Source of the DNA: Gemmatimonadota bacterium
GTDB lineage: Bacteria; Gemmatimonadota; Gemmatimonadetes; Gemmatimonadales; GWC2-71-9
Direction: 5' to 3'
NCBI GenBank assembly: GCA_036679645.1
Contig: JAZDCY010000087.1
Span: 1-23,359 of the forward strand
Length of the DNA stretch: 23,359 bases
Shown: positions 1,918 through 17,304 of the stretch, one piece after another
Position numbering within the stretch: the stretch's first letter is position 1
How the letters are laid out: each line of letters starts with the position of its first letter
Program-made: the position numbers and the translations under genes
The notes under the pieces: model-generated
Databases searched by the model: none
Seen by the model: only the letters and a program-made list of their open reading frames with translations
Told to the model about the DNA's origin: nothing

Positions 1918-2443
1918 ATGACAACGCTCGCCCCTCCGCCACAATGATGCTGGCACGCCGCAATTGCTCTTGAAACTTCTGTTCCGTCATGTCGACTCTG
2001 AGTCGCTTCGTGTGCCCGATTTGCCGATAGGCCGCTTCGAGCGACAGGAGCTGGTCTGTAAAACCCAGTGCATGCGCGGAGGTGATCGCGGCGCCGTCCC
2101 CTGTTACCAGGGCCATGTCTTCGGTCGCGTGGTGCACCAGATATGCGAGCGCCTCTTTCTCCCCGGGGTCCAGTTTCGCGCGTAAGCCGGGGTGGAGCCG
2201 TCCGAGGAAGGCGGCTTGTTCAGCCGGTGTGGCCGAGCACTTCTGTATCACCCCTTCATCGACCTCGGCCTCGAGACCCAAGAGGCGCCGTTGGCCGTCG
2301 GTGTCGAGGAAGTATGTCACTTCCTCGATGACCGTCTCGGCCACAACGATACCGTAGTGTTCCCGTAGGAGAAGCCACCCGTCGCATTGGTGCGCGCAGA
2401 TGCACGCGTCGGCGTCAACCAATAGTAAGCGCGGCCGAGTCAT
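1916..2443 (-). CDS. PIN-domain protein (putative ribonuclease toxin)
   Basis: Start taken at MTRPRLLLVDAD. PIN-type acidic motifs LVDAD, TVIEEV, LDPGEKEALA and LVTGDGAA. Overlaps the 3' end of the upstream XRE-ImmA gene. Confidence 0.75.
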   Translation of the reverse strand: MTRPRLLLVDADACICAHQCDGWLLLREHYGIVVAETVIEEVTYFLDTDGQRRLLGLEAEVDEGVIQKCSATPAEQAAFLGRLHPGLRAKLDPGEKEALAYLVHHATEDMALVTGDGAAITSAHALGFTDQLLSLEAAYRQIGHTKRLRVDMTEQKFQEQLRRASIIVAEGRALS

Positions 2444-3605
2444 CGTACTGCTCGTCAAACCCATGCCGCGACAACTCGCCTAGGGGCACCTCGAGACATT
2501 GAGCGGCCTTCGCGCGCCCGATCTCGCCACGCTGGTAAGCCGACCGAACGAGGTCCACGAAGCGGTCGGTGAACGGCCGTTCCGGCGTGGTCCAGTGGTC
2601 TTGGGACGCGGCTTGCCATGCCGCCTGGAATACGGCGTCACCACGTACCCGCTCCTTGTCTCCTTCTGAAATGACACCAAGCGTTGACAGCCGGATGACC
2701 ATGGCCTCGAGCGACACGCCAAAGTCCATAGCGAGGTTGGCCATGTCCCCGGGGCTCAGTTTCCCGTCCCGTGCCCTTACACGTACGCGTTCGAGTAGCT
2801 CACCAGCGGGAGACAGTAACACGGAGGCAAAAGCGTTCGCCTGCGCTTCGAGCTTGTTGTACCACCAGGGAGCCGTCTCTTGGTCTCGCTCCCAGAGCGC
2901 GCGGACAGATTCCCACGTCACGAGATGGAAGAGTTCGTGTGCGAGGCTGAACGTGCGGCGCCACGGCGGCTCGTCGCGGCTCAGCAGGACTGCCGCCCCG
3001 AACTCGCCCATTGCGCATGCGGCCGACCCGTCCGGGTCGTCTCCCAGGCTCTCGTAGAAGACCTTCACCCCATACGTCTCTTCGAGAGTTGGAAGAAGCG
3101 CACGGGCAGGTCGGTTACCGAGGTTGAGCTGTTCGGAGACCTGCTCGGCGATCCCCCGCGCAAGTGTGGTGTTCGCCCGTGCGGGATCGTGGGGAATCTC
3201 AGGGAGTTGCCGGGTGGGCCACTCGTTCGCCCACTCCATCACGAGCGCGTAGCGCGACGCCCGGTCTATCAACGCGGCTTCGCGCTGCATCCGCCGGTTG
3301 GCGTCGGCGTGCGGCTGGCCAGCGGCCGTTCGCCAGAGCACGAGTGCGGGTGTGGGCATCGGTTCGAGCCCGAGAAGCACCTCGATACCCACCCGAAGCA
3401 GGCCGGCGAGTTTGGCAAGTTCGAAGGCTTTGACCTGTCGGTCACCCCGTTCGAGGGCAGATACCGTCTCGCCGGCCTTCCATCCCATGGCCCGGGCCAC
3501 CTCGTCCTGAGAGAGTCCGGCCCGCTCCCTAGCCCGTCTGACAGCCGCAGCGATCAGGTTTGGGGATCCGGGAGTGGCCGGCTTGCGGGAGCGCGACTTT
3601 GGCAT
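2415..3605 (-). CDS. XRE helix-turn-helix fused to ImmA/IrrE-family zinc metallopeptidase
   Basis: N-terminal RRARERAGLSQDEVARAMG..TVSALERGDR (XRE HTH); RRTFSLAHELFH (HExxH) followed by EAQANAFASVLL. Confidence 0.92.
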   Translation of the reverse strand: MPKSRSRKPATPGSPNLIAAAVRRARERAGLSQDEVARAMGWKAGETVSALERGDRQVKAFELAKLAGLLRVGIEVLLGLEPMPTPALVLWRTAAGQPHADANRRMQREAALIDRASRYALVMEWANEWPTRQLPEIPHDPARANTTLARGIAEQVSEQLNLGNRPARALLPTLEETYGVKVFYESLGDDPDGSAACAMGEFGAAVLLSRDEPPWRRTFSLAHELFHLVTWESVRALWERDQETAPWWYNKLEAQANAFASVLLSPAGELLERVRVRARDGKLSPGDMANLAMDFGVSLEAMVIRLSTLGVISEGDKERVRGDAVFQAAWQAASQDHWTTPERPFTDRFVDLVRSAYQRGEIGRAKAAQCLEVPLGELSRHGFDEQYDDSAALTIG

Positions 3606-3865: not shown

Positions 3866-4600
3866 GTGGAGGCACCTCTGACCCGCCCGCACGTCCCCCT
3901 TGGAGTCGGCATCTACAGCCGAGCCGAAGCCGCCCGCTTGCTTCGCCTCACGCCGCAGCGGTTAAGCCGGTGGGTCCGGGGGTACACCTATTGGCTCAAG
4001 TCCGGTCCTGCGCCGCGTCGCACGCGGCAGCCTCCCGTTGTTCGCACCGACCTTCCTACGATCGACGGCACCGTCGCGCTTTCCTTCCTCGAGCTGATGG
4101 AGCTGCGGATCGTCAAGGCGTTCATCGAGAAAGGTGTGCCTCTACAGCGCGTGCGAGTCGCGGCACGCCGCATCCAGGAGCTTTTTGGAATCCCGCATGC
4201 GTTCGCGCACCGGCGTGTTTTCACCGATCACGAGGAGGTCTTCGTGGGGCTGTCGTCTTCAGAGCCGCAGCCCGACTTGCTGCAGGTCACGGGGAAGCGC
4301 GCGACGCTACAGGTGATAGCGGGAAGCCTTTTCGAGCACTTTGTGGAGGAAGTCGATTTCGACCCGAAGACCTCGCTAGCCGAGCGTTGGTTTCCGCTCG
4401 GGCGCGGCGTCCCCATTGTTCTAGATCCTCACATTGCGTTCGGTGCACCGGTTCTTGTTGGCACGAGGATTCGTACCGACGTCTTGGCGTTGTATGCCTC
4501 CGGCAACAAGAGTGACACGGTGGCACGCGCGTTCGAGCTGACGCGACCTCAGGTGACGGCCGCTACCGATTTCGAGGCCCAACTGGCGCGCGCCGCTTGA
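3866..4600 (+). CDS. DUF433-domain protein with N-terminal HTH (VapB45-like antitoxin)
   Basis: GIYSRAEAARLL..LSRWVRGY, LSFLELMELR, and C-terminal IVLDPHIAFGAPVLVGTRIRT. GTG at 3866 is preferred to the longer ORF start at 3818 (judgement). Confidence 0.85.
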   Translation: MEAPLTRPHVPLGVGIYSRAEAARLLRLTPQRLSRWVRGYTYWLKSGPAPRRTRQPPVVRTDLPTIDGTVALSFLELMELRIVKAFIEKGVPLQRVRVAARRIQELFGIPHAFAHRRVFTDHEEVFVGLSSSEPQPDLLQVTGKRATLQVIAGSLFEHFVEEVDFDPKTSLAERWFPLGRGVPIVLDPHIAFGAPVLVGTRIRTDVLALYASGNKSDTVARAFELTRPQVTAATDFEAQLARAA

Positions 4601-4645
4601 TCTTCCTGCTGGACGCCAACTTCCCACCGCAGTTCGCACGTGTCC
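4597..4645 (+). pseudogene. 5' stub of a PIN toxin (DUF5615/VapC45-like), truncated
   Basis: TTG start overlaps the TGA of the DUF433 gene. MIFLLDANFPPQFARV matches the 'FLLDxNxPP' opening of these PIN proteins; resemblance is lost after about 16 codons and the frame runs into DUF488 copy B. Confidence 0.7.
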
Positions 4646-4691
4646 CGCAATCGCCGGATCGCGAGAGACCATGTCACGCTTTCGGAGCGTC

Positions 4692-5081
4692 GGCTGGATG
4701 TACTATGATTCCTACGCCCATGATCTCATTGACTGCTCCGACCCTTTTCACGCTTGGATACCAGCAGCGCTCGCTCGACGAGTTCGTGGCGCTGCTCCTC
4801 GAAGCATCCATCGACGTACTCGTCGACGTACGCGAGACCGCATGGAGCCATAAACCCGGATTCTCGAAGCGTGGCTTTTAACCCACGCCTTGGGTGATCA
4901 CGAGATCGCCTATGTTCACGCGAAGTTCGCCGGCAATCCAAAGCACCTGCGCAAGTCAGCCGCGTCACATGGGGAGTGTTTGCGCCTTTATGCTCGCCAC
5001 ATTGAATCCAACGCAGCGATCATCGAGACCTTCGACGAACTGATTGGCCGTCTCCTGGATGCCGGGAAGCGCGTGTCGCCG
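4692..5081. repeat. Direct repeat copy B (DUF488 region); partner at 1385-1770
   Basis: Direct alignment with 1385-1770. Confidence 0.95.
4720..5081 (+). pseudogene. DUF488-family protein, copy B, frameshifted near 4877 and truncated
   Basis: LFTLGYQQRSLDEFVALL..DVLVDVRETAWSHKPGFSKRG, then GGCTTTTAA vs GGCTTAA in copy A (+2 nt, giving a stop at 4881). The remainder is in ORF 4890-5165. Family resemblance ends at the same GKRV point as copy A. Confidence 0.8.
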
Positions 5082-5106
5082 ACGACAGTTGCCGTATTCG
5101 CTAGAC

Positions 5107-5912
5107 CTACGACGAGTCCAGTAGATCGAGTTGGTCGGCGAGTTTCGGATACCAGAGTCCGATGATACCGAACTGGTACATTCTCATCCGGAAACTCCCC
5201 ATGAACAGCTTGAAGTCATGCTCATCCGGATTCGTTATTGACCGCAGGCGGCTAGCCGCCTTTTCCGGATCTCGCGTCTTGCGCGCAAGTTCCAAGAGTC
5301 CCCAGTCGAGCACACTCATGTTGTGGGGTCCGTCGGCACATTCGTCGCATGCCCCAGCGCACCGCCAAGCGAGCCGGATTGTGTAAGGTAGGTACTCCAG
5401 CTCCTTGTATTGCGGGTGGAAGAGGTCCGGTTGTGCCTGGATCTCTCGCCACTTCTCTTGGAAAGCGGCCTTATCTCCCAATGGACGTACTTGCACTTCT
5501 ACACCTTCGATCGTTCTGACCGACACGATGCCCATTGAAAGGCCAGATGCGCGGCGCGCGGCCTTCAGGTCGGCAACGCTGTCAAACTGCCAGCCGACGT
5601 GGCGGAACATGATCTCGCGACGTTGGCGCCAGTGATCGGAGGTGTCCACGTGCGCGACGACCCGAATGGCCTCGCTCATTACCTTGTAGCTCTCCGGGCG
5701 CGGATCACTGTGACTTTTCTGGATCGGCACGTCGATCCAGTCGTAGAGCCCGTATTGCTTTGAGCCGTCCAGGTAGCGAAGCGGGACAGGATACAGCCTG
5801 ATCGGCCGACCGTCTTCGCGCACGGCGCCGTGCAGACCGTCTCGACGTATCTGGCACTGAGTTCGGGATAGGTTTTGCCCCAGATCAGGGCACGAATCGT
5901 ATCGTAAGCCAC
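5107..5912 (-). CDS. Conserved hypothetical protein (KTYP...ETVCT...RLYPVP...DPRPES family, recalled as a DUF488 neighbour); 1-nt frameshift near 5831
   Basis: GGAGG RBS then GTG at 5912. MAYDTIRALIWGKTYPELSARYVETVCT (ORF 5679-5912) joins GAVREDGRPIRLYPVPLRY...IIGLWYPK (ORF 5107-5973) if one base is restored at TGC AC- GGC GCC. Confidence 0.75.
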
Positions 5913-6051
5913 AAGCCTCCGGACCGCTCGGACGTTCTGATGCGTCGATAAGCGGCCAACGATCCGGTGTCAAGCGCGTTACACCGCCCGTAGGTGCGTT
6001 CCTTCGCTGCTACACCGACCACGGACAACTCCTAAGCCTCGACAGACCGAT

Positions 6052-6198
6052 TCAGCATCGTCGGTACTGCGTGTTCTGCCCCTTGCCGCAGTTGCCACAC
6101 GGCGGCAACTGATCGTCGGCGTCGTCGAGCACGACCGCCCAGTCACAGTTGGTGCAGCAATACCGACCCTTTCCGGGTTTCTCCCCGATGTCATGCAT
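6052..6198 (-). CDS. 48-aa zinc-ribbon protein
   Basis: Below the ORF-track cutoff. AAGGAG RBS, then MHDIGEKPGKGRYCCTNCDWAVVLDDADDQLPPCGNCGKGQNTQYRRC*, with two CxxC pairs and the GEKPGKG..LPPC pattern of small zinc-ribbon proteins. Confidence 0.85.
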   Translation of the reverse strand: MHDIGEKPGKGRYCCTNCDWAVVLDDADDQLPPCGNCGKGQNTQYRRC

Positions 6199-6222
6199 CT
6201 CGTTCTCCTTGATTGTCAGGCG

Positions 6223-6520
6223 TCAGTCAGTGATGTCGCGACGGAATGTCGTGTCGGCCGAGCGCTTCGCCGCCTGCCGAAACGCCTGCTGCTGTTTCAC
6301 GTCACGCGCACTGTCGACCGATTCCGGTGTCTCGACCTCGACGATCTTCCGTTCCCAACCCTTCTTCACGACAACATCCGGCCTGTACCCGGTGATCGTA
6401 CCGGGCTTCGAGAACCCCTCGATATCGGCCTTCACGTCAAACCCGTGCTTTCTCATGCGTCCGAGCTACTTCACACACACGCTCGTCGTGCTCCGTTTGA
6501 GACTTCTTGCTCCGAGTCAC
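6223..6520 (-). CDS. Small PD-(D/E)xK-like (restriction-endonuclease fold) protein, probable +1 frameshift near 6451
   Basis: GTG at 6520 gives MTRSKKSQTEHDERVCEVARTHE. Removing one A in GAGAAAGCAC continues into KHGFDVKADIEGF..GYRPDVVVKKGWERKIVEVET. Motif is PD..EVE. The alternative is a 77-aa ORF from ATG at 6456. Confidence 0.6.
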
Positions 6521-6587
6521 ATGGATTTCCTCGTGATGGTTGAACCGCAGGTCAGTCCCGTGATCGCCGTGTTCGGTGACCTCCTGC

Positions 6588-8120
6588 TTAGACCACAAGG
6601 TCTACGTCGGTCGGACGGCTTCTTGCGTCCAAGATCCGGCGTCGCCGGACGGCCTCGATGTTCTTCTTCCTGGTCGTGCACACGCAATCGCGGTGGCGCG
6701 CCTGCGGGTAGAGGAGCCCGCCCTGGGGTCCCTGCAGAGCGTCGAACTGAAACTGCGGCTCGAGCACAGAGTTCAGTCCGGCCGCGTACTTGATCAGTTC
6801 CCCAACCACCATCGCAGCGCTCATGCATGCGACGAACGGGACCGACGGTGCCGGAGGAGCGGTCTGATCGGTTGTCAACGTCCGAGCCATCGCCTCGTCT
6901 ACCACCGAACAGATCCTCTTCCCAACGTATGCCGCGAGCCGGTCGCGCTTCTCGGCCGGTGCACCCTCCACATCTTCGACTGTTACGAGTTCGTCCCCTT
7001 TGACCACTCGTTCGGGACTCAGACCGGTCATCTGGCTCTGCAGGAGGTCCGCACGGTGGGCCCGCGGTTCGCGGTAGACGCACCGTAGGCAACCGATGTT
7101 GGGTCCCCACGGGTGCTTCCCAACACCAGCTAGGAGATCCCCGATCGCGCCGTCGATTACGACATCGAGCCAGAGGTCCTGAATCGCGTGCCGAGCCTCG
7201 ATGGTGTCCACGGCGCCTAAAACCACGTCCGGGTACTGGATTTCGAGTCCGAGTCGCTGGTCGAAGGTTTCGATGTCTTCGACGAAGCCAGTTGCAGCGA
7301 TCCCGGTTTGAAAACGGGATGCGAGATACTCAGCCTTGTCCTGCCCAAGCGCCTCGCGTCCGACGAGCACTGACGTACCGAGGTTCTCGTCCGCGTACTG
7401 TTGCGGATCGACTATCGCTAGCGTGCCGGTGAAGGGGAGCTGACGGAGGAGGTAGACGATGCCATTACCGATAGTCCCGCCGCCCACGAGTACGGCGTTG
7501 AGCAGCATCGGGGAGATCGCTGGTCCTGCCGTCTCGGATGTGCAGTCGTAGGAGAAGAGATCGAACTCCAAGAACGGCCAGAGCGATCCGCGGCTTTCCC
7601 GCAGTGCGATCAGGCGTTTGAACACCTCTGCCGTGCCGAGGCTGGCGGCGAACAGCGCGGCTACCGGATTGGTGTTCGATGTTGTCGCAGGAAGGTCGCC
7701 GCCGCCGGAAGCGACCATGGCATGCCAGCCATCCGAGTTCACCGTCGTCCACGGAAGATCGGAACGGCCGGTAGCGCCGACGCTCAGGATGGCGTCGAAG
7801 GAACTCAGCGTGGGTCGCTCTTGGAATTGGATGGGCGATGCAAACTCGAGCTGACGAGCGGTCGCCCCGATGTCCTCGCCAAGCCCAGGCACATTTAGCG
7901 GGACGTGCACCGTTAGCTGGGTGGTCATCGACCTCAATAGGCGCAAGGAGGCTTCGAAACATGTCCGACCGTTTGGCGTGCGAAGGACCTCCGGCTCACC
8001 CGTCAGTAGGACCCGCTTCTCCGGAAAGCGGTGGCGATCCGCAGCGTGTTCGCCAAGAGCCGCCGCCACGCCCATCGGCCGACTGAAGGCCGTCTGGCGG
8101 TCTACTGCGGAACTAGGCAC
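6588..8120 (-). CDS. bilD: E1-like ThiF-family ubiquitin-like activating enzyme (BilD-like)
   Basis: ~200-aa N-terminal degenerate adenylation-like region (NPVAALFAASLGTAEVFK); VLVGGGTIG nucleotide-binding loop; IVDPQQYADENL; GAVD; CLRC and C-terminal CVC as zinc ligands; candidate catalytic Cys404 (GKRICS) before PSVPFV. Symbol assigned from operon context. Confidence 0.88.
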   Translation of the reverse strand: MPSSAVDRQTAFSRPMGVAAALGEHAADRHRFPEKRVLLTGEPEVLRTPNGRTCFEASLRLLRSMTTQLTVHVPLNVPGLGEDIGATARQLEFASPIQFQERPTLSSFDAILSVGATGRSDLPWTTVNSDGWHAMVASGGGDLPATTSNTNPVAALFAASLGTAEVFKRLIALRESRGSLWPFLEFDLFSYDCTSETAGPAISPMLLNAVLVGGGTIGNGIVYLLRQLPFTGTLAIVDPQQYADENLGTSVLVGREALGQDKAEYLASRFQTGIAATGFVEDIETFDQRLGLEIQYPDVVLGAVDTIEARHAIQDLWLDVVIDGAIGDLLAGVGKHPWGPNIGCLRCVYREPRAHRADLLQSQMTGLSPERVVKGDELVTVEDVEGAPAEKRDRLAAYVGKRICSVVDEAMARTLTTDQTAPPAPSVPFVACMSAAMVVGELIKYAAGLNSVLEPQFQFDALQGPQGGLLYPQARHRDCVCTTRKKNIEAVRRRRILDARSRPTDVDLVV

Positions 8121-8643
8121 CGACCGTTATCACTTCGGCGAGCTGACTCGTATCGATCCGCACTCGTTTTTCGACCTCCGCTGTGCCGAGCCTCCGGTAT
8201 CCCGTGCCCGTTTCGAATACATGGACGCCGCAGTCCATAATGGTCGTGGACGGTCGTTGAGCGAAGTCGGGCGCGACGATCGACAGGTAGTGGGGAACGG
8301 CTACGCCGTACTTCCGGTCCGTTTCCGAGAGGCTCGTTGAGTAACCGATGCCGTGCGAGTGGATCTGACCGATTAGGCACACGCCTGCATCGATCGCGAA
8401 GTCGGTCACGTCGTTTAGAAGCCACGACTCGATCACCATCAGCTCCGGACCCTTCCGAACTCCCGGTCCCCGGAGCAAGACCACGTGCGAGACGGAGGCG
8501 CGGCCGGACTTCCGGTTGCCGAGCCACAGCGCGACTCCTTCGTTGCCCCGGGCGCCGTCGCGCGCCATATCGGCCAGGGACACGTCGAGAACGTCGGCCG
8601 CCAGGCGCCAGCGATCGACCCTTGGGAAATAGCGTTCGCTCAT
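8113..8643 (-). CDS. bilC: JAB/MPN (JAMM) metallo-isopeptidase (BilC-like)
   Basis: NEGVALWLG ... GQIHSHGIGYSTSLSETD matches E..HxH..S..D. The ATG at 8643 forms an ATGA overlap with the E2 stop. Confidence 0.9.
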   Translation of the reverse strand: MSERYFPRVDRWRLAADVLDVSLADMARDGARGNEGVALWLGNRKSGRASVSHVVLLRGPGVRKGPELMVIESWLLNDVTDFAIDAGVCLIGQIHSHGIGYSTSLSETDRKYGVAVPHYLSIVAPDFAQRPSTTIMDCGVHVFETGTGYRRLGTAEVEKRVRIDTSQLAEVITVGA

Positions 8644-9080
8644 CGGAATCGGCGTTGGAACTGCGTGTCCAGCTCGTCTTGCAGGGTCCGCAACACTCTC
8701 AGCAAAGGATTGCCGTGGGAGTCCCACGCCATTCGAGGGTCTCGCCGCCACTCGGGGTGGAGCGCAAAGCCCTCCGAACACCAGTTCACGCAGGCGTCGA
8801 GGCTCTGGGGTCTGAATCCGCGGACAACGGGCCAGGCGCTGGCAACATCCAATCGTCCCGTGTCCGGATCCCGGAATTTCAGCGACGGAGCTTCATCGGG
8901 GTACTTTCCCCAAAGCCATCTCGCTTGAAACAGTTCGTGAGCTGCGGGCGTCGGCGCCATGGTTGATAGCACCTCCAGCGACCCGAGCAGATCGAGCGCC
9001 CATCGTTCGGCATCGGGCAATTGCAGGACGGCTTCGTAATCGTCCTTGAGATTCAAAACCGAGAGTTCGTCGGCGGTCAT
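8640..9080 (-). CDS. bilB: E2-like ubiquitin-conjugating protein (BilB-like)
   Basis: KYPDEAPSLKF is the E2-fold YPxxxP motif; also AWP, candidate Cys97/Cys101 (DACVNWC) and HPEW. Lies between the Ubl and JAB genes with ATGA overlaps on both sides. Confidence 0.8.
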   Translation of the reverse strand: MTADELSVLNLKDDYEAVLQLPDAERWALDLLGSLEVLSTMAPTPAAHELFQARWLWGKYPDEAPSLKFRDPDTGRLDVASAWPVVRGFRPQSLDACVNWCSEGFALHPEWRRDPRMAWDSHGNPLLRVLRTLQDELDTQFQRRFR

Positions 9081-9364
9081 CCCTGCACGATCATCTTCTG
9101 CAGCTTCAACTGCAGAACGTGGTGATCGCCGGCGATGTCGCCAAGGGTCCGACTGAGGTCCTCGAGCGGCTCTTTCTTCGCGAAGAGCGTGTAGGTCGCG
9201 AGGTTGCCGTCTTCTGTCGGCCCCTCCGTAAGGCCGAAGGCGGAAAGGACACGTTGTTTGAGCTGTCCGACTGTCTCGCTCGGGTCCGCCGAATCGTCCT
9301 TGAAGGGCTCGCCGGCTGCCGGGAAATGGACAACTAGCTTAAGCTTGATCGCTACGGTCATCAT
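9077..9364 (-). CDS. bilA: Ubiquitin-like beta-grasp protein ending in Gly (BilA-like)
   Basis: 95 aa; ETVGQLKQRVLSAF helix; LEDLSRTLGD resembles ubiquitin LEDGRTLSD; ends LQLKLQKMIVQG*. AGGAGG RBS upstream. Confidence 0.85.
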   Translation of the reverse strand: MMTVAIKLKLVVHFPAAGEPFKDDSADPSETVGQLKQRVLSAFGLTEGPTEDGNLATYTLFAKKEPLEDLSRTLGDIAGDHHVLQLKLQKMIVQG

Positions 9365-9393
9365 GCCCTCCTAGGAAACGGTACTATGCTAGT

Positions 9394-9413
9394 CCGCAGA
9401 TCTGCTGTTTAGC
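9394..9413. promoter_or_regulatory. Candidate operator upstream of the Ubl gene
   Basis: CCGCAGATCTGCTGTTTAGC contains the perfect palindrome GCAGATCTGC and is 17/20 identical to 10511-10530. Confidence 0.65.
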
Positions 9414-9442
9414 GTAGTCCATGGCCCAAAAAACCGCAAGCC

Positions 9443-10156
9443 CTACTCAAACAGGGGCTCAGCCCCCACGGCTTCCGCGAGGTGCCCAAGTTGCAAGAGC
9501 CGCACGCGTGCCGCGGCCGACGATACGGAAAAAGCGCCCGCCACGCGCTGCACGAGCCCATGACCGAGCCGAGAATCGGCAGCCACCAAACCAAGGTGCG
9601 GCTCGCTTGCGAAAACCTTTCGGACCAGGGCCCCGATCTCGGTGGAGGGCATAAGCAGAGCCCCAGAAGCATAACCAGCCTGCCATTCCATCCAGTCGGT
9701 TACGGCCGCCTGCAGAATTGTCTCGCGCCTACACTGCTGCAGCTCACCAGTCTCGGACTCGAAAAGATCGAGTTCTTTACTCTTTTCCTGCCACAGCTGG
9801 TCATGGAAGCAGACGTGTCCGTATTCGTGAGTCAGCGTGGTGCGGAAGCGGTTTTCGTTGAATTCCTGAGTGCTGAGTTCACTGGCTATTCGGACTACTG
9901 GACGCTCCCCGGACTGAAACTCTGTCACACCTTCAACGCCAGCCCCTTCCAGGCGCAGATCAGCATACAGATCAAGTTCCCGGGTATCGCGCTCAATCAG
10001 CTTCGTCAGCGTATCTGTTGGAATCGGGTACATGGGTTGCCCGTGAACCTGAATCATGAACTCCGTGATGGTACGTTCGCACTCAAGATCGAGCTCAGCA
10101 CGGTCGTAGAAGGGCCGTGAGGGAAAACGGCCGGTGGGATCACGTATGTACTTCAC
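9443..10156 (-). CDS. ImmA/IrrE-family metallopeptidase (CapP-like)
   Basis: NRFRTTLTHEYGH (HExxH), WMEWQAGYASGALLMP, and C-terminal FSVSSAAARVRL. Directly downstream of an XRE HTH gene. Confidence 0.9.
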   Translation of the reverse strand: MKYIRDPTGRFPSRPFYDRAELDLECERTITEFMIQVHGQPMYPIPTDTLTKLIERDTRELDLYADLRLEGAGVEGVTEFQSGERPVVRIASELSTQEFNENRFRTTLTHEYGHVCFHDQLWQEKSKELDLFESETGELQQCRRETILQAAVTDWMEWQAGYASGALLMPSTEIGALVRKVFASEPHLGLVAADSRLGHGLVQRVAGAFSVSSAAARVRLLQLGHLAEAVGAEPLFE

Positions 10157-10167
10157 GGGCCGGACCG

Positions 10168-10470
10168 CTAACGTGCTAGGTTCCGGCGAAAGGTCTTGTA
10201 CGCGCTAACCACCTTCTTTCTATCGCGAGCCTTCTTTAGGTCGGCTGGCAATGTACCTGCGAGGTGATACAGATAGTCCTTGTCTTCTCGTAACACCCGG
10301 GCGAGTTCTTCAACGACGTGTGCTGATGGTATACGGCGGTCGCGCTCGATGTCGTTCAAATACTGCGGCGATATCGGTTCCCCATCCTCCTTTCGGATTC
10401 TATTCGCCAGTTCCTTTTGACTCAGGGGAAGTTTCTTTCGCGCTTCAGCGATCACTTGACCGAAGGTCAT
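10168..10470 (-). CDS. XRE-family HTH transcriptional regulator (CapH/ImmR-like)
   Basis: MTFGQVIAEARKKLPLSQKELANRI..ISPQYLNDIERDRRIP; GAGG RBS. Confidence 0.92.
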   Translation of the reverse strand: MTFGQVIAEARKKLPLSQKELANRIRKEDGEPISPQYLNDIERDRRIPSAHVVEELARVLREDKDYLYHLAGTLPADLKKARDRKKVVSAYKTFRRNLAR

Positions 10471-10510
10471 AACGCCTCTAGCGGGTTGTAGTAGCGATTG
10501 GGATGCTCAA

Positions 10511-10551
10511 CCGCTGATCTGCAGATTAGCAGAGAAGTGTATTGGTGTCAA
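10511..10551 (-). promoter_or_regulatory. sigma70-type promoter with overlapping palindromic operator for the HTH-peptidase-Ubl operon
   Basis: Minus strand TTGACA (10551-10546), 17 nt, TAATCT (10528-10523). The near-palindrome GCTGATCTGCAGATTAGC (10513-10530) covers the -10 box. Confidence 0.75.
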
Positions 10552-10568
10552 CGACATATGCGCCGGCC

Positions 10569-11753
10569 TCACTGGAGGCTTCGAAACGCCCGCTGCGCGA
10601 GCGAGTTGAAGAGATCGTTGTGATGATCCTGTGCCTCGACTGCCTCGTGCCACAGCTTGCCGTGGCGTTCCAATACCTTAGTGAAAACCTCCCGAAGATT
10701 CAGTGGCGGAACAGGGACTGGCAGTTCCTTGACGTCCCCCAGGTTGATCCCACGGACCGCCACGCCCTTTACAAAACGTTGCATGAGCTGCTGCATCGGC
10801 TCAGATGCCAAGCACATTTGCATGTATGGAGCCATGTGAGTCCCGATGATCGCCAAACGGGCCGTATCTTGGGTGATATTACCGCCTTCGAGTTCCTTCG
10901 GAGTCACCGCGATCCGTCCCACGTGACCCCTGATTGAGAGGAGTACGTCACCCGCCCGAAGCATCGATCTCTTGTACGCTTCCGCAATCTTTCTTGTGGT
11001 TCTCCTGACCGCATCTCTCACCGTGCCTTCAACCATGTCGACGACTCTGACGTAAGGAATTCCGTCGGGTTGGTCGGGGCCAGGTTTTAGGATGCCGTAC
11101 GTGATGGGACGGTCAGGATCGACTAGCTCTCGAAGCGTACGGACCTCCCACCCCTTCTCATTCCGCACCGGATCCCCAAACATCTCCAAGAACACCGACC
11201 GCAAGAACTCATCCAACAACCCCACCGCCTCCCGCCGCTTCCGCCGCACCGCGTCCGCCTTGTCCAACATCGCGGCAATTCGGCGCTGCTCGGCCAAGGG
11301 GGGGAGGGGAATTCGCTGGGCTCGCAGGAACGACGTCGGGACGCGCTTTTGCCCGGCAGTCCCGGTCATATTGCGCTCGGCCACGAAACGGAAGCGGGCG
11401 TTCCAGACCCCGTAGAACAAGTACCGCGCGTCGATCTCAGGGCCCGGTCGCAGCACATGGAATTCCGTGGAGCCGAATCCCACACTCGTTGGCATCGTAT
11501 CGAGTAGGGCTGCCTTTCCGTTCTCCATGCACGGTGTGATCTTCGCCAGGAGGACGTCGCCGCGCTCGAAGTACGTGTAGCCCTTGAGCACGTCCGCGAT
11601 TTGTCGCTCCTCGTGGTAGCTGACTGTCGCGTCCTCCGACACCGAAGACATCGGCAGGAATGTCACTCGCTCAGACGCGCGTTCCCTCACTCCCTTTGCG
11701 GTGGACGGGTTGATCTCCGCGACAGCGCTCAAGGGCACGAGTCGGGTGCTCAA
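10569..11753 (-). CDS. hsdS: Type I restriction-modification specificity subunit
   Basis: Two target-recognition domains separated by IPLPPLAEQRRIAAMLDKADAVRRKR...FLEMFGDPVRNEKGW; ends LFNSLAQRAF. Confidence 0.96.
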   Translation of the reverse strand: MSTRLVPLSAVAEINPSTAKGVRERASERVTFLPMSSVSEDATVSYHEERQIADVLKGYTYFERGDVLLAKITPCMENGKAALLDTMPTSVGFGSTEFHVLRPGPEIDARYLFYGVWNARFRFVAERNMTGTAGQKRVPTSFLRAQRIPLPPLAEQRRIAAMLDKADAVRRKRREAVGLLDEFLRSVFLEMFGDPVRNEKGWEVRTLRELVDPDRPITYGILKPGPDQPDGIPYVRVVDMVEGTVRDAVRRTTRKIAEAYKRSMLRAGDVLLSIRGHVGRIAVTPKELEGGNITQDTARLAIIGTHMAPYMQMCLASEPMQQLMQRFVKGVAVRGINLGDVKELPVPVPPLNLREVFTKVLERHGKLWHEAVEAQDHHNDLFNSLAQRAFRSLQ

Positions 11754-13306
11754 GGAAGCATTTCCTCGAGGTCCTGCAGATCGCTAGCAATCTCGCCCTC
11801 GATCTTGCGTAGGCGCGCTAGAATCTCGCCGGGCGTCTCATACTCGACCTCTTCGTACGGAATCTCCCTGTACCGATTGATCGACAAGTCGAACTCGTTT
11901 TTCACGATCTCACCGACCGGCACGAAGAACGCCTTGGCAGTGCGGTCCGTGTCCTTCTCCGGATCCCGCTCCCGCCACCGCTGCAACACGTCCGGTATGT
12001 CGTTCTCAGGCGTTCGCTCGCGCTTGTCGTCCAGCGAGTAGCCGTCAGCCTGCATGTCGTAGTACCAGACGTGCTCCGTGTCGCCGCCCTTCACGAAGAT
12101 CAACACCGCAGTGCTCACCCCCGCATACGGCTTGAATACGCCACTCGGCATCTTCACGACGCCCTGCAACTCGCACTGCTCGATCAGCATCTGCCGGAGC
12201 TGCTTGTGCGCCTTGCTCGACCCGAACAGCACGCCGTCCGGCACGATCACCGCCGCCCGACCGCCAATCCGCAGCAGGTTCATGATCCGGTTCACGAACA
12301 ACAGCTCCGTCTTGGTGGTCTTGAGCTTCAGCTCCTCGTGGATGTCCCCCTTGTCGATGCTCCCCTTGAACGGTGGATTGGCGAGCACAACGTCGTAGCG
12401 ATCCTTTTCGTCGTAGCGCTTCGACAACGTGTCCATGTAGCCCAACCTGGGCCGGTCGATCCCGTGCAGCAGCAGGTTCATGAGACCAATGCGGACCATG
12501 GTGGTGTCGAAGTCGTAGCCGTGGAACGTCTTTTCCCTTAATACCTCCCACTGGCGCGGGTCGGTCAGCTTGTCGCCCAACAGCCCCCGCTCGATTCCAT
12601 CCTCACCGACATGACAGTGCTCGGCGCTGGTATGCTGTGTCAGGATGTGCTGGTAGGCACCCAGCAGAAACCCGCCCGTGCCGCAAGCCGGATCGCACAC
12701 CTCCTCGCCCAGCTTGGGATCGACCAGCGACACCATCATCTGGATGATGTGCCGCGGCGTTCTGAATTGGCCGTTCTTGCCGGATGTGCTGATCTCGGCG
12801 AGGAGGTACTCGTATAGATCGCCCTGCACGTCGTGGAAGGTCTGTCCCGTGTCCTGCCGCTCGCGCTCGATCTCGGCGTAGATCTCGTCGATGATCCCCA
12901 CCGCCTCCACCAGCAACGATGCCTTGGGAATAATGAATACGGCATCCTGCATGTACGCGGTGAAGACCTGGCCGCCGTCCTTCAGGTTCTTGATGAACGG
13001 GAAGACGTTGTCGCGCAGGTGGTCCAGCATCTCCTCGGCGGGGAGATGGCGGAACTTGCTCCAGCGCAGGTCCTCGCAAGGACGCTCTTCGCGCGCTCGG
13101 GTTTCGTAGGTGCCGGCGAAGATTGACGTGTGCTCCCGGTCCAGGAACTCGGCGTCGCCCCGCTTCTTGTCGTCCAGCGCGTCGAGCCGGCGCATGAACA
13201 GCAGGTAACTGATCTGCTCGACGGCGGTGAGCGGGTTGGCGATGCCGCCCGACCAAAAATGGTCCCACAGCTTGTCGACCTTGGATTGGATTGGCTGGGT
13301 CAGCAT
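11750..13306 (-). CDS. hsdM: Type I restriction-modification N6-adenine methyltransferase
   Basis: GQFRTPRHI, DPACGTGGFL (motif I), LANPPF (motif IV), VPDGVLFG. Confidence 0.97.
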   Translation of the reverse strand: MLTQPIQSKVDKLWDHFWSGGIANPLTAVEQISYLLFMRRLDALDDKKRGDAEFLDREHTSIFAGTYETRAREERPCEDLRWSKFRHLPAEEMLDHLRDNVFPFIKNLKDGGQVFTAYMQDAVFIIPKASLLVEAVGIIDEIYAEIERERQDTGQTFHDVQGDLYEYLLAEISTSGKNGQFRTPRHIIQMMVSLVDPKLGEEVCDPACGTGGFLLGAYQHILTQHTSAEHCHVGEDGIERGLLGDKLTDPRQWEVLREKTFHGYDFDTTMVRIGLMNLLLHGIDRPRLGYMDTLSKRYDEKDRYDVVLANPPFKGSIDKGDIHEELKLKTTKTELLFVNRIMNLLRIGGRAAVIVPDGVLFGSSKAHKQLRQMLIEQCELQGVVKMPSGVFKPYAGVSTAVLIFVKGGDTEHVWYYDMQADGYSLDDKRERTPENDIPDVLQRWRERDPEKDTDRTAKAFFVPVGEIVKNEFDLSINRYREIPYEEVEYETPGEILARLRKIEGEIASDLQDLEEMLP

Positions 13307-13331
13307 GCGTCCTCCATGAACCGTGCGTTCA

Positions 13332-13535
13332 CGCGCGATTCATCGCGCGCCGCGCAGCGCCGAGCGCGGGTTTCAACCCGCGAACCCCACGGTGATGCCC
13401 CGCCCGCGTCCCGGGGTAGTGGCGTTCGAATCCGCCACAATGAGGTGAGACCGCGTCCGCCAACTCGGTTCGCGCCCTGAAGGGCGCGCTCGGCGGCCTG
13501 ACGGCCGGCGCGTCTTGAAAGACGCTGGCGCCTAC
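13332..13535. repeat. Cluster of REP-like GC-rich hairpins in inverted arrangement
   Basis: Palindromes at 13332-13349, 13365-13382, 13419-13438, 13471-13488 and 13510-13525; GTAG tetramers at 13416 (+) and 13535 (-). Confidence 0.75.
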
Positions 13536-14581
13536 GAATCCCGCGGCACCCATTGCGCGCCCCGACCGTAACCTTCCAGTTCGATCTTCCCTTCATCCCT
13601 GAGCCTCCGTAACACATGCCGAACCATCTCCCGACTCACACCGGGACAGTCAGCCTCGATATCCGCGATGCCGAACGGGCGTGCCCGCCGGGCTACCGCC
13701 TGCTCGATGCAGTCTGTCTTGGAACCGCGCCCGCCCTGAACCGCGCCGACGCGCGCTTCGAATTCCCCGTAAGCACGTAGTAACACGCCCCAGAAGTACG
13801 TCACCCACGGCAGCGCATCGTGCGTTCCCTCGTGCCAGCCCTGTGAGCTTGTCTCGAGCGTTTCGTAGTAGCTCTCCTTCGACTCCTCAGCGATGCGCTC
13901 GATGCTGATGTACTTCCCGACGGCATAGCCGGCCTGATAGAGCAGTAGCAGCGTGAGGAGCCGTGCCATGCGGCCGTTCCCGTCGGTGAACGGGTGGATG
14001 CACAGGAAGTCGAGCACCGCCAGGGGAATGACGAGGAGCGGCTCGCGTTGTTGATCCACCGCCTGAGCATAGGCGTCGGCAAGGGCATCCATGGCCGGCG
14101 GGGTAGCGACGGGAGTTACCGGCGTAAAGCGCACGCGGCGGACCGTGCCGTCCGAATTCCGCTCCACGATCTCGTTCTGTGTCATCTTCCACCGACCGCC
14201 ATCTGCCGGCAAGTAGCGATAGAGGATGCCGTGGAGTTGGAGAATGACGTTCACCGAGGGCGTCATCTCCATGGCCGATTCGTGAATGAGATTCAGCGCA
14301 TCCCGATAGCCGGCGATTTCCTGTTCCGGCCGGTCCTGCGGGGCGGTAGGTCTCAGAACGAGCGCTTTGATGCGGTCCCGAGGGACGCTGATTCCCTCTA
14401 ATCGGTTGGATGACTCCGACGACTCGATGACCGCGGCCTCCCGCAGGGCCTCGAGGACCTCAGGGGTCTGCCTGCGAAACAGCTCCTGCTTACCCCGATA
14501 CTCGCCTAGCGTCGCGAGAGTCGAGGCGAGGTCGGCCGGGAGCCGGAGTCGGTCCAGGTACGGAGAGGCGATGGAGAGCAT
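13532..14581 (-). CDS. Fic-family protein with C-terminal HTH
   Basis: HPFTDGNGRMAR is the canonical Fic motif; ESSESSNRLEG resembles the (S/T)xxxE(G/N) inhibitory motif; C-terminal winged-HTH-like tail. Confidence 0.95.
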   Translation of the reverse strand: MLSIASPYLDRLRLPADLASTLATLGEYRGKQELFRRQTPEVLEALREAAVIESSESSNRLEGISVPRDRIKALVLRPTAPQDRPEQEIAGYRDALNLIHESAMEMTPSVNVILQLHGILYRYLPADGGRWKMTQNEIVERNSDGTVRRVRFTPVTPVATPPAMDALADAYAQAVDQQREPLLVIPLAVLDFLCIHPFTDGNGRMARLLTLLLLYQAGYAVGKYISIERIAEESKESYYETLETSSQGWHEGTHDALPWVTYFWGVLLRAYGEFEARVGAVQGGRGSKTDCIEQAVARRARPFGIADIEADCPGVSREMVRHVLRRLRDEGKIELEGYGRGAQWVPRDS

Positions 14582-14582
14582 G

Positions 14583-14657
14583 AAATGCGTAATAAGGTAA
14601 ATAAACGTGACAACAAAGCTATGTAATTACGCATTTATTGTCAATCGCCACGCATTT
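14583..14657 (-). promoter_or_regulatory. fic promoter with 11-bp inverted repeat
   Basis: Minus strand TTGACA (14644-14639), 17 nt, TAGCTT (14621-14616). AAATGCGTAAT (14583-14593) and ATTACGCATTT (14626-14636) are perfect inverted copies; a partial third copy ACGCATTT is at 14650-14657. Confidence 0.65.
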
Positions 14658-17304
14658 CTAACTCGTCGCGAGCCTCCCCACGAACTGCAGGATCTCTTCG
14701 ATCTCGGCAGGCCGGAAAACTCCCCGAATCCCCTGGGGGTGAATCTGGGTGAACGGCCGCTCGATGAGATGGCTCTTTTCGACCAGGCCGGTCTGAAGGA
14801 TGAACGTTCGGAGCGTCTGGATGAATCGGATCTGCAACGCCGAGTAGTCGTTGTGTCTCCCGATGAAGTCGTCGAACGCGCGTGTGATCTCCGCGGACCA
14901 ACTCTCCACCAGCTCCAGGCCCAGCACGTGGCGCAGCAATTGGAGGAAGTTCGCTGTCCGTGCGTCGTAGACCTGTCTGAGTTGCTCCTCCGTGATGTAC
15001 GGGTCCTGGCCGCGCAGGAGACTGGCCAGCTCCCGCAACTCCGTCTCGCTCACCTCCTCGCCCCGCTGGATCTTCTGAAGCACCGGGTTCTCGGCCACGA
15101 GAGTGCGGATGTACGTCTCCACCCTTTCCCGGTACGCGGCGGTCGACAGGCGTTCGTGTTCCGGTCCGAACTCGATGTATTCCTTCAGCACGACCGCGTC
15201 TTCGAGATCGAGCTTGAGGATCGGGTCCCGGTGGCGCTGCCGGTATTTCATGAGCGGACCGAGCCTCTGCACCAACTCGCGTAAGCCAGCGTCATCCGCC
15301 CCCTTCCACCACGCCTCTTTGAGTACCCGATCGATAAGCGGCTTCTCTTTCGCCACGACGTTCACCGTGAGGGGCAGCTCTTCCACCTGCGTCCGCACGG
15401 ACTCCTTCAACGCCTCGACCGCATCGTCGTTGCGGGATAGCAAGGCGGTCCCCAACTCCACCACGTCCGTCTCGAACCGCAGCGCCTTGAACTCGGCGTC
15501 CGTGCGTACGCGCATGACGGGAGCGATTACCGTCCGGAGAAAGCCAAGGTCCTCAGGCCTGAGTCTCTCCCAGTACGAATCATCCCCGCTCTGAGGTCCG
15601 TCTTGATGGTCTCGATTACGTTAGTCGCACCTTCGGCGAACGCGACCTCCAGCTTGTCCAGCCGCGCCTTGAAGAGCCGCACCGGCACGGGTACCTGAGT
15701 GCCCGGTTCCCGGCCCTCGGGTTGCATGTCGAAGTACTCGAAGTTTCCCCAGCAGTCGATGATCAGGAACCGGTCCTTCTCGGTGCACCACGGTTTGCGT
15801 TTCTCCGGATCGGCATCGAGAATTCGCGTGCCCCGGCCGATCATCTGCCAGAACTTCACGTAACTGTAGACCGGCTTGGCGAAGACCAGGCTTACGACCT
15901 CGAGGATGTCGACGCCCGTATCCAGCATGTCCACCGAGATCGCAACGCGCGGCATGTCAGACGTCTTGAACTGATCCAGCAGTCCGCCTTTACCGTAGAC
16001 GAATCGGTCCTCGGAGACCAACACGCGGGCCAGGCGTCCGCGATGTTCCGGGTACAGCGCGTCGAAGATTTCCTGAAGGCGCCGCGCGTGTTTCTTGGAA
16101 ATCGCAAAGATGATCGTCTTCCCCGGCAGCGTACCCGAGGAATCCTTGATGCACTCCTCCATGAACTCGCGGACGATGAGTGCGTTGGTCGGTGCGTTGG
16201 TGACCTTGCGCTCGAGATCGGTGCCCGCGAAATCGATGTCCTCGACGTCCAGTCCGTCCGCTGTGAGCTTCTGTTGAATGGGCGGTGGGAGCGTGCCGCC
16301 GTGAATTCCCTCGAGCTGGAACTTCGAGCGGACTTTGAGCACTTCGAAGTTGCACAGGTAGGGAGGATCGTGCTCGATGGCTTCCTGATACGAATACGCA
16401 AACGACGGTTCACCCGGATCGCACTCGAACAGTTGGAACGTGTCGTGGTCTACGTGATCGCGCGGCGTCGCGGTCAGGCCAAGTTTGATTCCGTGGAAGT
16501 AGTCCACGACGTGCTGGTACGTGTTGTAGATGCTCCGGTGGCTCTCGTCAGCAATGATGAGATCGAAGAAGAAAGGCGAGATCCAGGTTCCCGGACTCGT
16601 ACCGGCCTGGATGCGGCTCAGCATCGTGGGATACGTGGTCACGTAGATGCGGCGGTTTGCGGCCCACGTGTGCTCGCCCTGCTTGGGCCAGGGCGGTGCC
16701 GCGGGCATGAATTCCTTGAACGCGCCCAGCGCCTGATCTCTGAGTGCAATCCGGTCGACGAGAAAGAGCCCCCTTCGAGGAGACTGCGGATAGCGGCAAT
16801 CTGGTAGTCCCGACCGGCGATATCTGTATCGATCAGCTCGACCGACAGCGGTTTCCGGCTCTCGCGTCGTTGGACGAGCCACTCGAGGTCGTCGGGTGTG
16901 GGGAAGCCGTGCACGGTGACAGGCGGATAGTGATCCGACTCCCAGTGGTAGATGTCGTAGCCGTTCGTGTACATGACGAACGGCGTTGCCCCACCGTGGA
17001 TTTTCTGGAGGTTCTCCGCGTACCGCAGCGCCTGTTCCTGGCCGAGCCGCGCGTCCTTCGAGGTACGCTTCGCTTCAACGACCGCCGTGGGCTTCCCGCG
17101 GAGTAGCAGCCCATAGTCGGCGAATTGGTGGCCCTCGTAGGGATGATCCGGTCGCTCTTCCCCCACGAAGAGTCCTGCCTTGCGCAGTTCGATATCCAGT
17201 TCCTGAATTACGTGCGACGGGTCGCGCACGTCCCAACCCGCCAGCGCGAGTTTCTCGTCGATGATCTGCTGGCGTGTTTGGGCTTCGTCGTAAGGCCGTG
17301 TCAT
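14658..17304 (-). pseudogene. hsdR: Type I restriction endonuclease R subunit (EcoEI-like), split into three frames by two apparent deletions
   Basis: FADY..VVEAKR nuclease motif and RDYQIAAI (ORF 16639-17304); LFLVDRIAL, IADESHRS, LTATP, MLDTGVD, QMIGRGTR (ORF 15527-16882); EcoEI-type C-terminus (14658-15515). No GxGKT Walker A between RDYQ and LFLVDR (break near 16770); second break near 15588. Confidence 0.9.

Follow-up and report, generated by a model that had tools for sequence, protein, structure and literature searches.

The window, which is the whole stretch of DNA analysed (23,359 nucleotides), carries on its minus strand, in the direction of reading, the genes hsdR (in pieces), fic, hsdM and hsdS, followed by an HTH gene, a peptidase gene and the genes of a Ubl-E2-JAB-E1 operon. 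The features of the last six genes and of their predicted control regions are as follows.

10546..10551, minus strand: candidate -35 box TTGACA of promoter P1 of the HTH-peptidase genes, assigned from the sequence
10523..10528, minus strand: candidate -10 box TAATCT of P1, preceded by TGn and lying within operator O1, assigned from the sequence
10510..10533, no strand: putative operator O1, made of two 16-bp palindromes that are shifted by 8 bp against each other, located with a relatives-only profile
10168..10470, minus strand: 100-aa XRE HTH protein, the predicted repressor, with helix SPQYLNDIE (Pfam HTH_3, E 7.7e-12)
9443..10156, minus strand: 237-aa M78 (ImmA/IrrE) metallopeptidase (Pfam PF06114)
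9434..9439, minus strand: candidate -35 box TTGCGG of the internal promoter P2, 3 nt past the peptidase stop codon, assigned from relatives
9411..9416, minus strand: candidate -10 box TACGCT of P2, which is the left arm of O2, assigned from relatives
9385..9416, no strand: putative operator O2, two abutting 16-bp palindromes making four half-sites with an 8-bp period
9367..9372, minus strand: AGGAGG, the ribosome-binding site for Ubl
9077..9364, minus strand: 95-aa protein with a C-terminal Gly, read as Ubl (BilA position) from gene order and the terminal Gly
8640..9080, minus strand: 146-aa protein at the place of E2 (BilB), assigned from position and an invariant Cys
8113..8643, minus strand: JAB deubiquitinase-like protein (BilC; PADLOC BilC, E 9.1e-10)
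6588..8120, minus strand: 510-aa E1 protein, BilD-like (PADLOC BilD, E 9.8e-29)

The cargo behind the peptidase gene is, as judged by sequence comparison, a Bil-type Ubl-E2-JAB-E1 operon with the gene order of BilABCD, because of the PADLOC matches to BilC and BilD and because the E1 protein matches the solved E1(BilD) structure (PDB entry 8TYZ; E 4.1e-14, residues 26-493). For the 95-aa protein in the Ubl position the family searches, Pfam and PADLOC among them, give no match, and its identity with its orthologues is 46-68%. The protein in the E2 position has no match in Pfam, PADLOC or the PDB, nor a sequence match to solved BilB; it belongs to a tight family of 382 homologues of about 145 aa, in which C97, E103 and H108 are near-invariant (conservation over 120 homologues) and in which F105 occupies the place of the first His of the type II CEHH motif. 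It is possible that this family is a distinct Bil subtype. The ubiquitin-like operon probably has an anti-phage function.

The HTH protein is matched by PADLOC capH (E 2.3e-6). Its model (pLDDT 94.2) has an N-terminal domain like that of P22 c2, ImmR and DdrO, the fold search being without a match at E 0.001, and CapH chains are not among the matches listed for this protein, in sequence or in fold. Its terminal helix (residues 84-99) contains the pair F94-R95, which is invariant in 33/33 aligned sequences and lies six residues from the C-terminus. The peptidase is matched by PADLOC capP (E 2e-9), and its best fold match is CapP (PDB entry 7T5T, E 5.1e-6), followed by IrrE/PprI. The HExxH motif (residues 110-114), E157, R103 and R105 are invariant in 29/29 sequences, R103 being at the position of the ssDNA-contacting R90 of CapP when counted from the first His. 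The cysteine-switch-like Cys142 is kept in 28/29 and is aligned with the Cys of Thauera CapP by a profile match that is weak (E 0.056). The model of the 237-aa peptidase (pLDDT 91.6) consists of the peptidase domain and a three-helix domain, after which the chain ends; a GAF domain is absent from it, and the family lengths are 212-251 aa.

Several further features of the window are recorded here. The hsdR gene (14658-17304) is broken into three ORFs whose frames differ (HSDR_N, ResIII/helicase, EcoEI_R_C), being either a pseudogene or the product of assembly errors. Downstream of the E1 gene, on the same strand, a 288-aa gene (5107-5973) matches the PADLOC candidate defence model PDC-M19B (E 1.6e-31). 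A second XRE-M78 gene, in this case a fusion (2415-3605), has PADLOC RmrA/capP matches and lacks the motif described below in its upstream region; it is followed by a 182-aa gene without a Pfam family (1916-2464). The fusion gene and an HTH-DUF433 gene are flanked by two similar stretches (1319-1947 and 4597-5165) with near-identical encoded peptide text, which suggests a local duplication.

Candidate operator arrays and promoters

The preliminary description reported a repeated 20-mer at 9394-9413 and 10511-10530, with 17/20 identical positions, and this repeat is present as described; its two copies lie at 30 nt and 41 nt, respectively, from the starts of the Ubl ORF and the HTH gene, and have their GCWGWTYWGC units at 9396/9404 and 10513/10521. 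The best ungapped matches between the two intergenic regions are 17/20, 22/28 and 24/30, compared with shuffled means of 12.6, 15.6 and 16.3, and 0/2000 dinucleotide shuffles equal any of these values. The 26-bp pattern GCT-N5-GCnGATCnGC-N5-AGC occurs only in these two places of the 4.05-Mb genome, also when one mismatch is allowed; this pattern is derived from the sites themselves and the search therefore shows uniqueness, not significance.

The repeat is larger than first described, being a 16-bp palindrome arrayed at an 8-bp period at 9385-9416 and 10510-10533. The motif was learned with the window left out: a palindromic 16-mer was trained on the 150-nt stretches preceding the HTH relatives, taken from the best 80 of 158 confirmed HTH-relative loci after these had been thinned to 32 at a protein identity of 75%. 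The recognition-helix peptide served as part of the seed for the genome set. The four top matches of the learned motif, TMCGCTRA-TYAGCGKA, in the window start at 10518, 9401, 9385 and 10510. They correspond to the two palindromes of O1 (10518-10533, 16.7 bits; 10510-10525, 12.1 bits) and the two palindromes of O2 (9401-9416, 15.3 bits; 9385-9400, 13.2 bits). With a 56-bp profile made from the downstream sites of the relatives, O2 is the top match genome-wide (45.8 bits), O1 scores 26.2 bits and the best match elsewhere scores 15.4 bits.

The promoter proposed earlier for the HTH gene, TTGACA (10546-10551) and TAATCT (10523-10528) separated by 17 nt on the minus strand, is found as claimed, and its -10 box is inside O1. 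The internal promoter of the Ubl genes was previously only an inference and is now supported by a conserved -35/-10 pair at O2. In the window P2 has the layout TTGCGG, 17 nt, TACGCT, the array down to 9385 and AGGAGG, which is the same arrangement as in the relatives; the O2 array covers the -10 box and the predicted start near 9404. At the downstream site of the relatives a TTG is found 16-18 nt before the 16-mer in 17/22 representatives (0-2 in four shifted frames), and it is in register in 12/20 of the held-out loci that are described below. The TAnnnT pattern fits the left arm of this site in 19/22 representatives and the right arm in 5/22 (14/20 versus 2/20 in the held-out loci), and such a left-arm bias in an otherwise symmetric site is as would be expected from a -10 constraint. 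The dinucleotide GC is present at positions 4, 12, 20 and 28 in 21, 22, 17 and 15 of the 22 representatives, and off-phase in 0-2, so that the site has four half-sites with an 8-bp period.

At the upstream site the -35 box in fixed register is weak in the relatives (6/27, with 0-5 in controls). A TTG and TAnnnT pair that overlaps the motif is present in 7/27 (random mean 0.31), and one of these seven loci, L013, has the same TTGACA-17-TAATCT layout as P1 of the window. A generic sigma70 scan of positions 4000-16000 returns 0 promoters, neither P1 nor P2 being called; by inspection the -10 hexamers of both match TATAAT at 3/6 positions, which is under the cut-off of the scan.

Distribution of the motif among relatives, cargo and hosts

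At a threshold of 12 bits the motif is found upstream of the HTH gene in 72/79 testable loci (27/31 representatives, in-sample) and no more than 250 nt past the stop codon of the peptidase gene in 51/71 loci (22/30 representatives, out-of-sample), the downstream site being absent in the other 20/71. The same loci contain 22 other matches in 801,649 bp, and equivalent windows behind other long ORFs, taken as control, have the motif in 4/331. Both sites are present in 19/32 representatives, which, going by the titles of their records, span nine phyla; the tree, being poorly resolved near the window, serves for the phylum labels only. The motif discovery upstream of orthologous loci that was proposed in the preliminary description thus finds the motif kept at both positions in the HTH-peptidase family, and the conservation on which the operator reading depended is there.

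A held-out set of 80 metagenome loci was chosen by peptidase alignment. In the 42 close loci the upstream site is present in 18/23 testable cases and the downstream site in 20/34, and in the 38 distant loci these numbers are 2/8 and 5/33. When the held-out loci are split by recognition helix, omitting one truncated HTH and loci lacking a testable side, the motif is present in 23/24 loci with the helix S[PA][QR]YL[NI]D[IL]E and in 3/12 with other helices. The three loci that carry the motif despite a different helix are all distant, and the coupling of helix and motif is therefore incomplete. Three further near-identical distant loci have a 10.8-bit variant of the motif at both positions, from which it follows that the motif is older than the exact helix. 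The distant gut-metagenome pairs L124, L126, L128, L132, L150 and L154, whose recognition helices differ, retain a motif variant on both sides. Among eight plasmid matches, three loci were examined and all three have both sites. In some Dehalococcoidia (L001, L003, L004, L007) the operator is 537-706 nt upstream, before an inserted gene that in L004 is kinase-like by eye; the downstream genes of these four loci are housekeeping-like and the second site is absent.

Searches of 401 and 401 genomes identified three orthologous Ubl-E2-JAB-E1 operons. None of these is accompanied by this HTH gene (0/3) or by a motif site upstream of Ubl (0/3), and the lone motif match, of 12.7 bits, is inside an E1 gene. 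One of the operons lies behind a tandem STAS-HATPase gene and a 200-aa gene, read as CapK/CapS-like (L176 1491-3665); another behind a divergent sigma-like gene accompanied by an M78 peptidase gene and a 150-aa gene of unknown kind (L177 4242-6550); and the third behind a divergent XRE-M78 pair (L178 2852-4427).

A genome-wide regulon is rejected, as single 16-mers in the genome number 43, 10 and 2 at 12, 15 and 18 bits and are not above the means of column-permuted profiles (66, 13.5 and 2.3). A DdrO-like regulon was suspected in Dehalococcoidia because the pair precedes housekeeping-type genes there, and it is likewise rejected, as each of 5 genomes examined has 1-3 matches. Control of the neighbouring genes (type I RM/Fic, the 288-aa gene, a 77-aa gene and the XRE-M78 fusion at 2415-3605) is also rejected, the best scores in the six intergenic stretches being -8.1 to 3.1 bits. 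The motif follows the HTH gene, since the orthologous Ubl operons under other regulators lack it and there is no wider regulon; in the genomes compared, it travels with the regulator rather than with cargo or host.

A search of 60 related genomes gave no member of the HTH family. Relatives of the E2-position protein were found neither in the viral contigs searched nor in five regulator-carrying genomes, and the phage matches to the peptidase are only two and distant. In the cargo of the Paraburkholderia plasmid, E1 and E2 can hardly, or not at all, be aligned with their counterparts in the window. Among the loci of 29 relatives, 15 have CBASS, HORMA/AAA, cyclase-E2, Bub, multi-ubiquitin/E2/E1, DUF3892 or DUF2188 families as cargo, in a scan that covered 63/106 roughly called ORFs on the same strand only. 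The HTH-peptidase genes and their cargo are arranged in tandem in the window, in 3/3 plasmid loci and in the relatives with same-strand cargo. In many Alphaproteobacteria (L010, L048, L053, L058, L071, L078) the cassette precedes two uncharacterised genes of about 390 and 315 aa, without a Pfam match among those scanned, and often also a small HTH gene; many such loci have additional copies of the putative operator just past the peptidase stop.

Proposed mechanism and its alternatives

In the reading that we prefer, with a probability of about 0.8, the repeats are operators of the XRE protein, which would repress its own promoter and that of the Ubl genes until it is inactivated by the CapP-like peptidase, for which DNA damage or infection is the probable trigger. 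The operator role of the motif for the HTH protein is supported, in that those parts that can be tested on sequences hold; repression, cleavage and induction by mitomycin C are proposed by analogy with CapH/CapP. HTH dimers would sit on O1 and O2, and thereby on the -10 boxes, stacking cooperatively on the four half-sites of O2, and would repress by blocking RNA polymerase, with autoregulation at P1 keeping the level of the repressor low. Once activated, by analogy probably by DNA damage or infection, the peptidase would remove the repressor, possibly by cleavage at or near F94-R95, and P2 would then fire the Ubl operon directly.

The cleavage of the HTH protein would be the weakest step of this mechanism, given that F94-R95 is six residues from the end and that the peptidase is without a GAF domain. 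Both features are also in agreement with a rather unlikely variant, in which the sites are HTH operators and the peptidase relieves repression without cutting, by blocking oligomerisation, or in which the signal is not single-stranded DNA; non-proteolytic inhibition is described as the second mechanism of COG2856/XRE pairs in the available text of PMC6868357. The invariance of HExxH, E157 and R103 (29/29) and the presence of C142 in 28/29 argue against this variant, and ImmA, as described in the same text, is without a GAF domain and yet cleaves ImmR.

The remaining alternatives concern the nature of the sites. That they are RNA hairpins (terminator or attenuator) or a chance duplication is hardly credible: the palindromic core does fold modestly (z -2.3), but for the internal intergenic region as a whole the folding is not better than that of shuffled sequences (z -0.92), which makes the hairpin reading weak, a terminator search of this region calls none, and the conserved bases are in a fixed register with the -35 box, the left 16-mer being mostly upstream of the predicted start. 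Some XRE proteins activate, such as the controllers of restriction-modification systems, and an 8-bp array with a spacing of 1.1 kb would permit higher oligomers, so the HTH protein could be an activator, or the sites could mainly loop the DNA between O1 and O2; we consider this improbable, as both arrays overlap the -10 box and the start region, which is the geometry of repression. Host stress control of defence operons is frequent, and it is conceivable, with a very low probability, that the motif, as an SOS-type box, serves a global regulator of the host and not the local HTH protein. The three distant loci that keep the motif with a different helix would agree with such a box. It is contradicted by the presence of the same motif around the HTH-peptidase pair in nine phyla, by 16-mer numbers in the host genome that do not exceed those of permuted profiles, by the mere 1-3 matches per genome in the five Dehalococcoidia genomes, and by the orthologous Ubl operons, which lack the motif as well as this HTH gene.

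With the sites taken as operators of the local HTH repressor, the gene pair and its two operators are in effect a portable inducible cassette that ends in a ready-made promoter for different defence operons. A more far-reaching proposal, which we regard as possible and keep tentative, is that the pair belongs to a distinct phylum-crossing XRE/M78 branch, characterised by the portable cassette, an operator that coincides with the -10 box, stacked dimers and a GAF-less peptidase whose sensing would not use the ssDNA groove. If this proposal is true, the cargo, including its unnamed genes, would be stress-inducible defence, and the motif would therefore be a discovery tag. The motif can serve to list the cargo of the cassette as candidate inducible defence systems. 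The analysis provides a precise predicted operator and a predicted internal promoter for a widespread, uncharacterised CapH/CapP-like branch, and it suggests that the tandem wiring with two promoters, as shown for the kinase switch CapK/CapS, is shared by the protease switch. In four genomes, one Bil-type operon stands behind a different regulator each time. How Bub-type operons are induced may help to reveal their function, and the absence of the GAF domain raises a direct question on the inducing signal.

Comparison with known systems

The operator is not described in the literature searched (exact strings, titles and abstracts); supplementary tables may list tandem pairs of this branch. The literature compared includes the available part of 10.1101/2024.11.21.623966, and, according to the available text of PMC11601596, Bub operons have not shown anti-phage activity in E. 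coli.

The cargo resembles BilABCD of types I and II in its Ubl-E2-JAB-E1 order, in the similarity of its E1 to BilD (PDB entry 8TYZ) and in the PADLOC BilC and BilD matches; it differs in the E2, where Phe replaces the first His of the type II CEHH motif, and in the Ubl, which ends directly in Gly (compared with the available text of PMC10557695). With DdrO/IrrE and ImmR/ImmA the regulatory pair would share an XRE repressor that is inactivated by a COG2856/M78 protease and that is autoregulated, and ImmA is also without a GAF domain. DdrO, as described in the available text (PMC6868357), has a genome-wide regulon, whereas none is seen here, and ImmR controls a mobile element. RptR is likewise a defence-island repressor that acts on a short-period array over the -10 box (PMC12255303), but it is a different protein and its array consists of 6-bp TAGCTA elements in 9-bp repeats; a partner protease is not mentioned in the available part of that source.

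CapH represses until it is cleaved by CapP, the cut being at F82-R83 in the first of two C-terminal helices, and all CapH/CapP pairs found in the available text are on the strand opposite to their operons (10.1101/2022.04.27.489752). In type II Bil operons CapH/CapP is reported for 25/162, all but one divergent (PMC10557695, available text), and ssDNA is described as binding to CapP between the peptidase and GAF domains (10.64898/2026.05.16.725639, available text). The locus resembles these systems in that an XRE HTH gene adjoins a gene for an M78 HExxH peptidase beside a defence operon, in the PADLOC capH and capP matches, the CapP 7T5T fold, the cysteine-switch-like Cys and the conserved Phe-Arg pair, and in an overlapping cargo of CBASS, DUF2188, DUF3892 and ubiquitin-like operons. 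The cysteine-switch loop is present in many, not all, CapP proteins, with C142 as its counterpart here. The published pairs, as far as the available texts describe them, are divergent with one shared promoter region, whereas the arrangement here is tandem with two putative operators; the peptidase here is without the C-terminal GAF domain (212-251 aa versus about 290); the 22-bp CapH site is upstream of the -35 box (Lau preprint, available text), whereas the site here contains the -10 box; and the Phe-Arg pair is in the last helix instead of the first of two C-terminal helices. The locus is set apart from CapH/CapP proper because it has neither the divergent layout nor the GAF domain.

The counterpart in wiring is CapK/CapS, where two promoters of this kind, tandem in their arrangement, are bound by CapS (PMC13373217). 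In both systems the regulator genes form a tandem that is situated upstream of operons of the CBASS, Bub or Bil kind, and there are two palindromic repressor sites (predicted ones in the window), at the own promoter and at that of the cargo, the TTAA of the CapS site being part of the -10 box; the formation of higher oligomers on the DNA is a proposed further likeness (PMC13373217). CapK/CapS differs in its chemistry, which is that of a kinase and a STAS-wHTH protein, and in its TTAA half-sites (PMC13373217); Pfam identifies no STAS-GHKL kinase or STAS-wHTH domains in the HTH-peptidase pair. Promoter 1 of that system is located between capK and capS (PMC13373217), whereas O1 precedes both genes here. 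By analogy, the switch would work like CapH/CapP in its chemistry and like CapK/CapS in its wiring.
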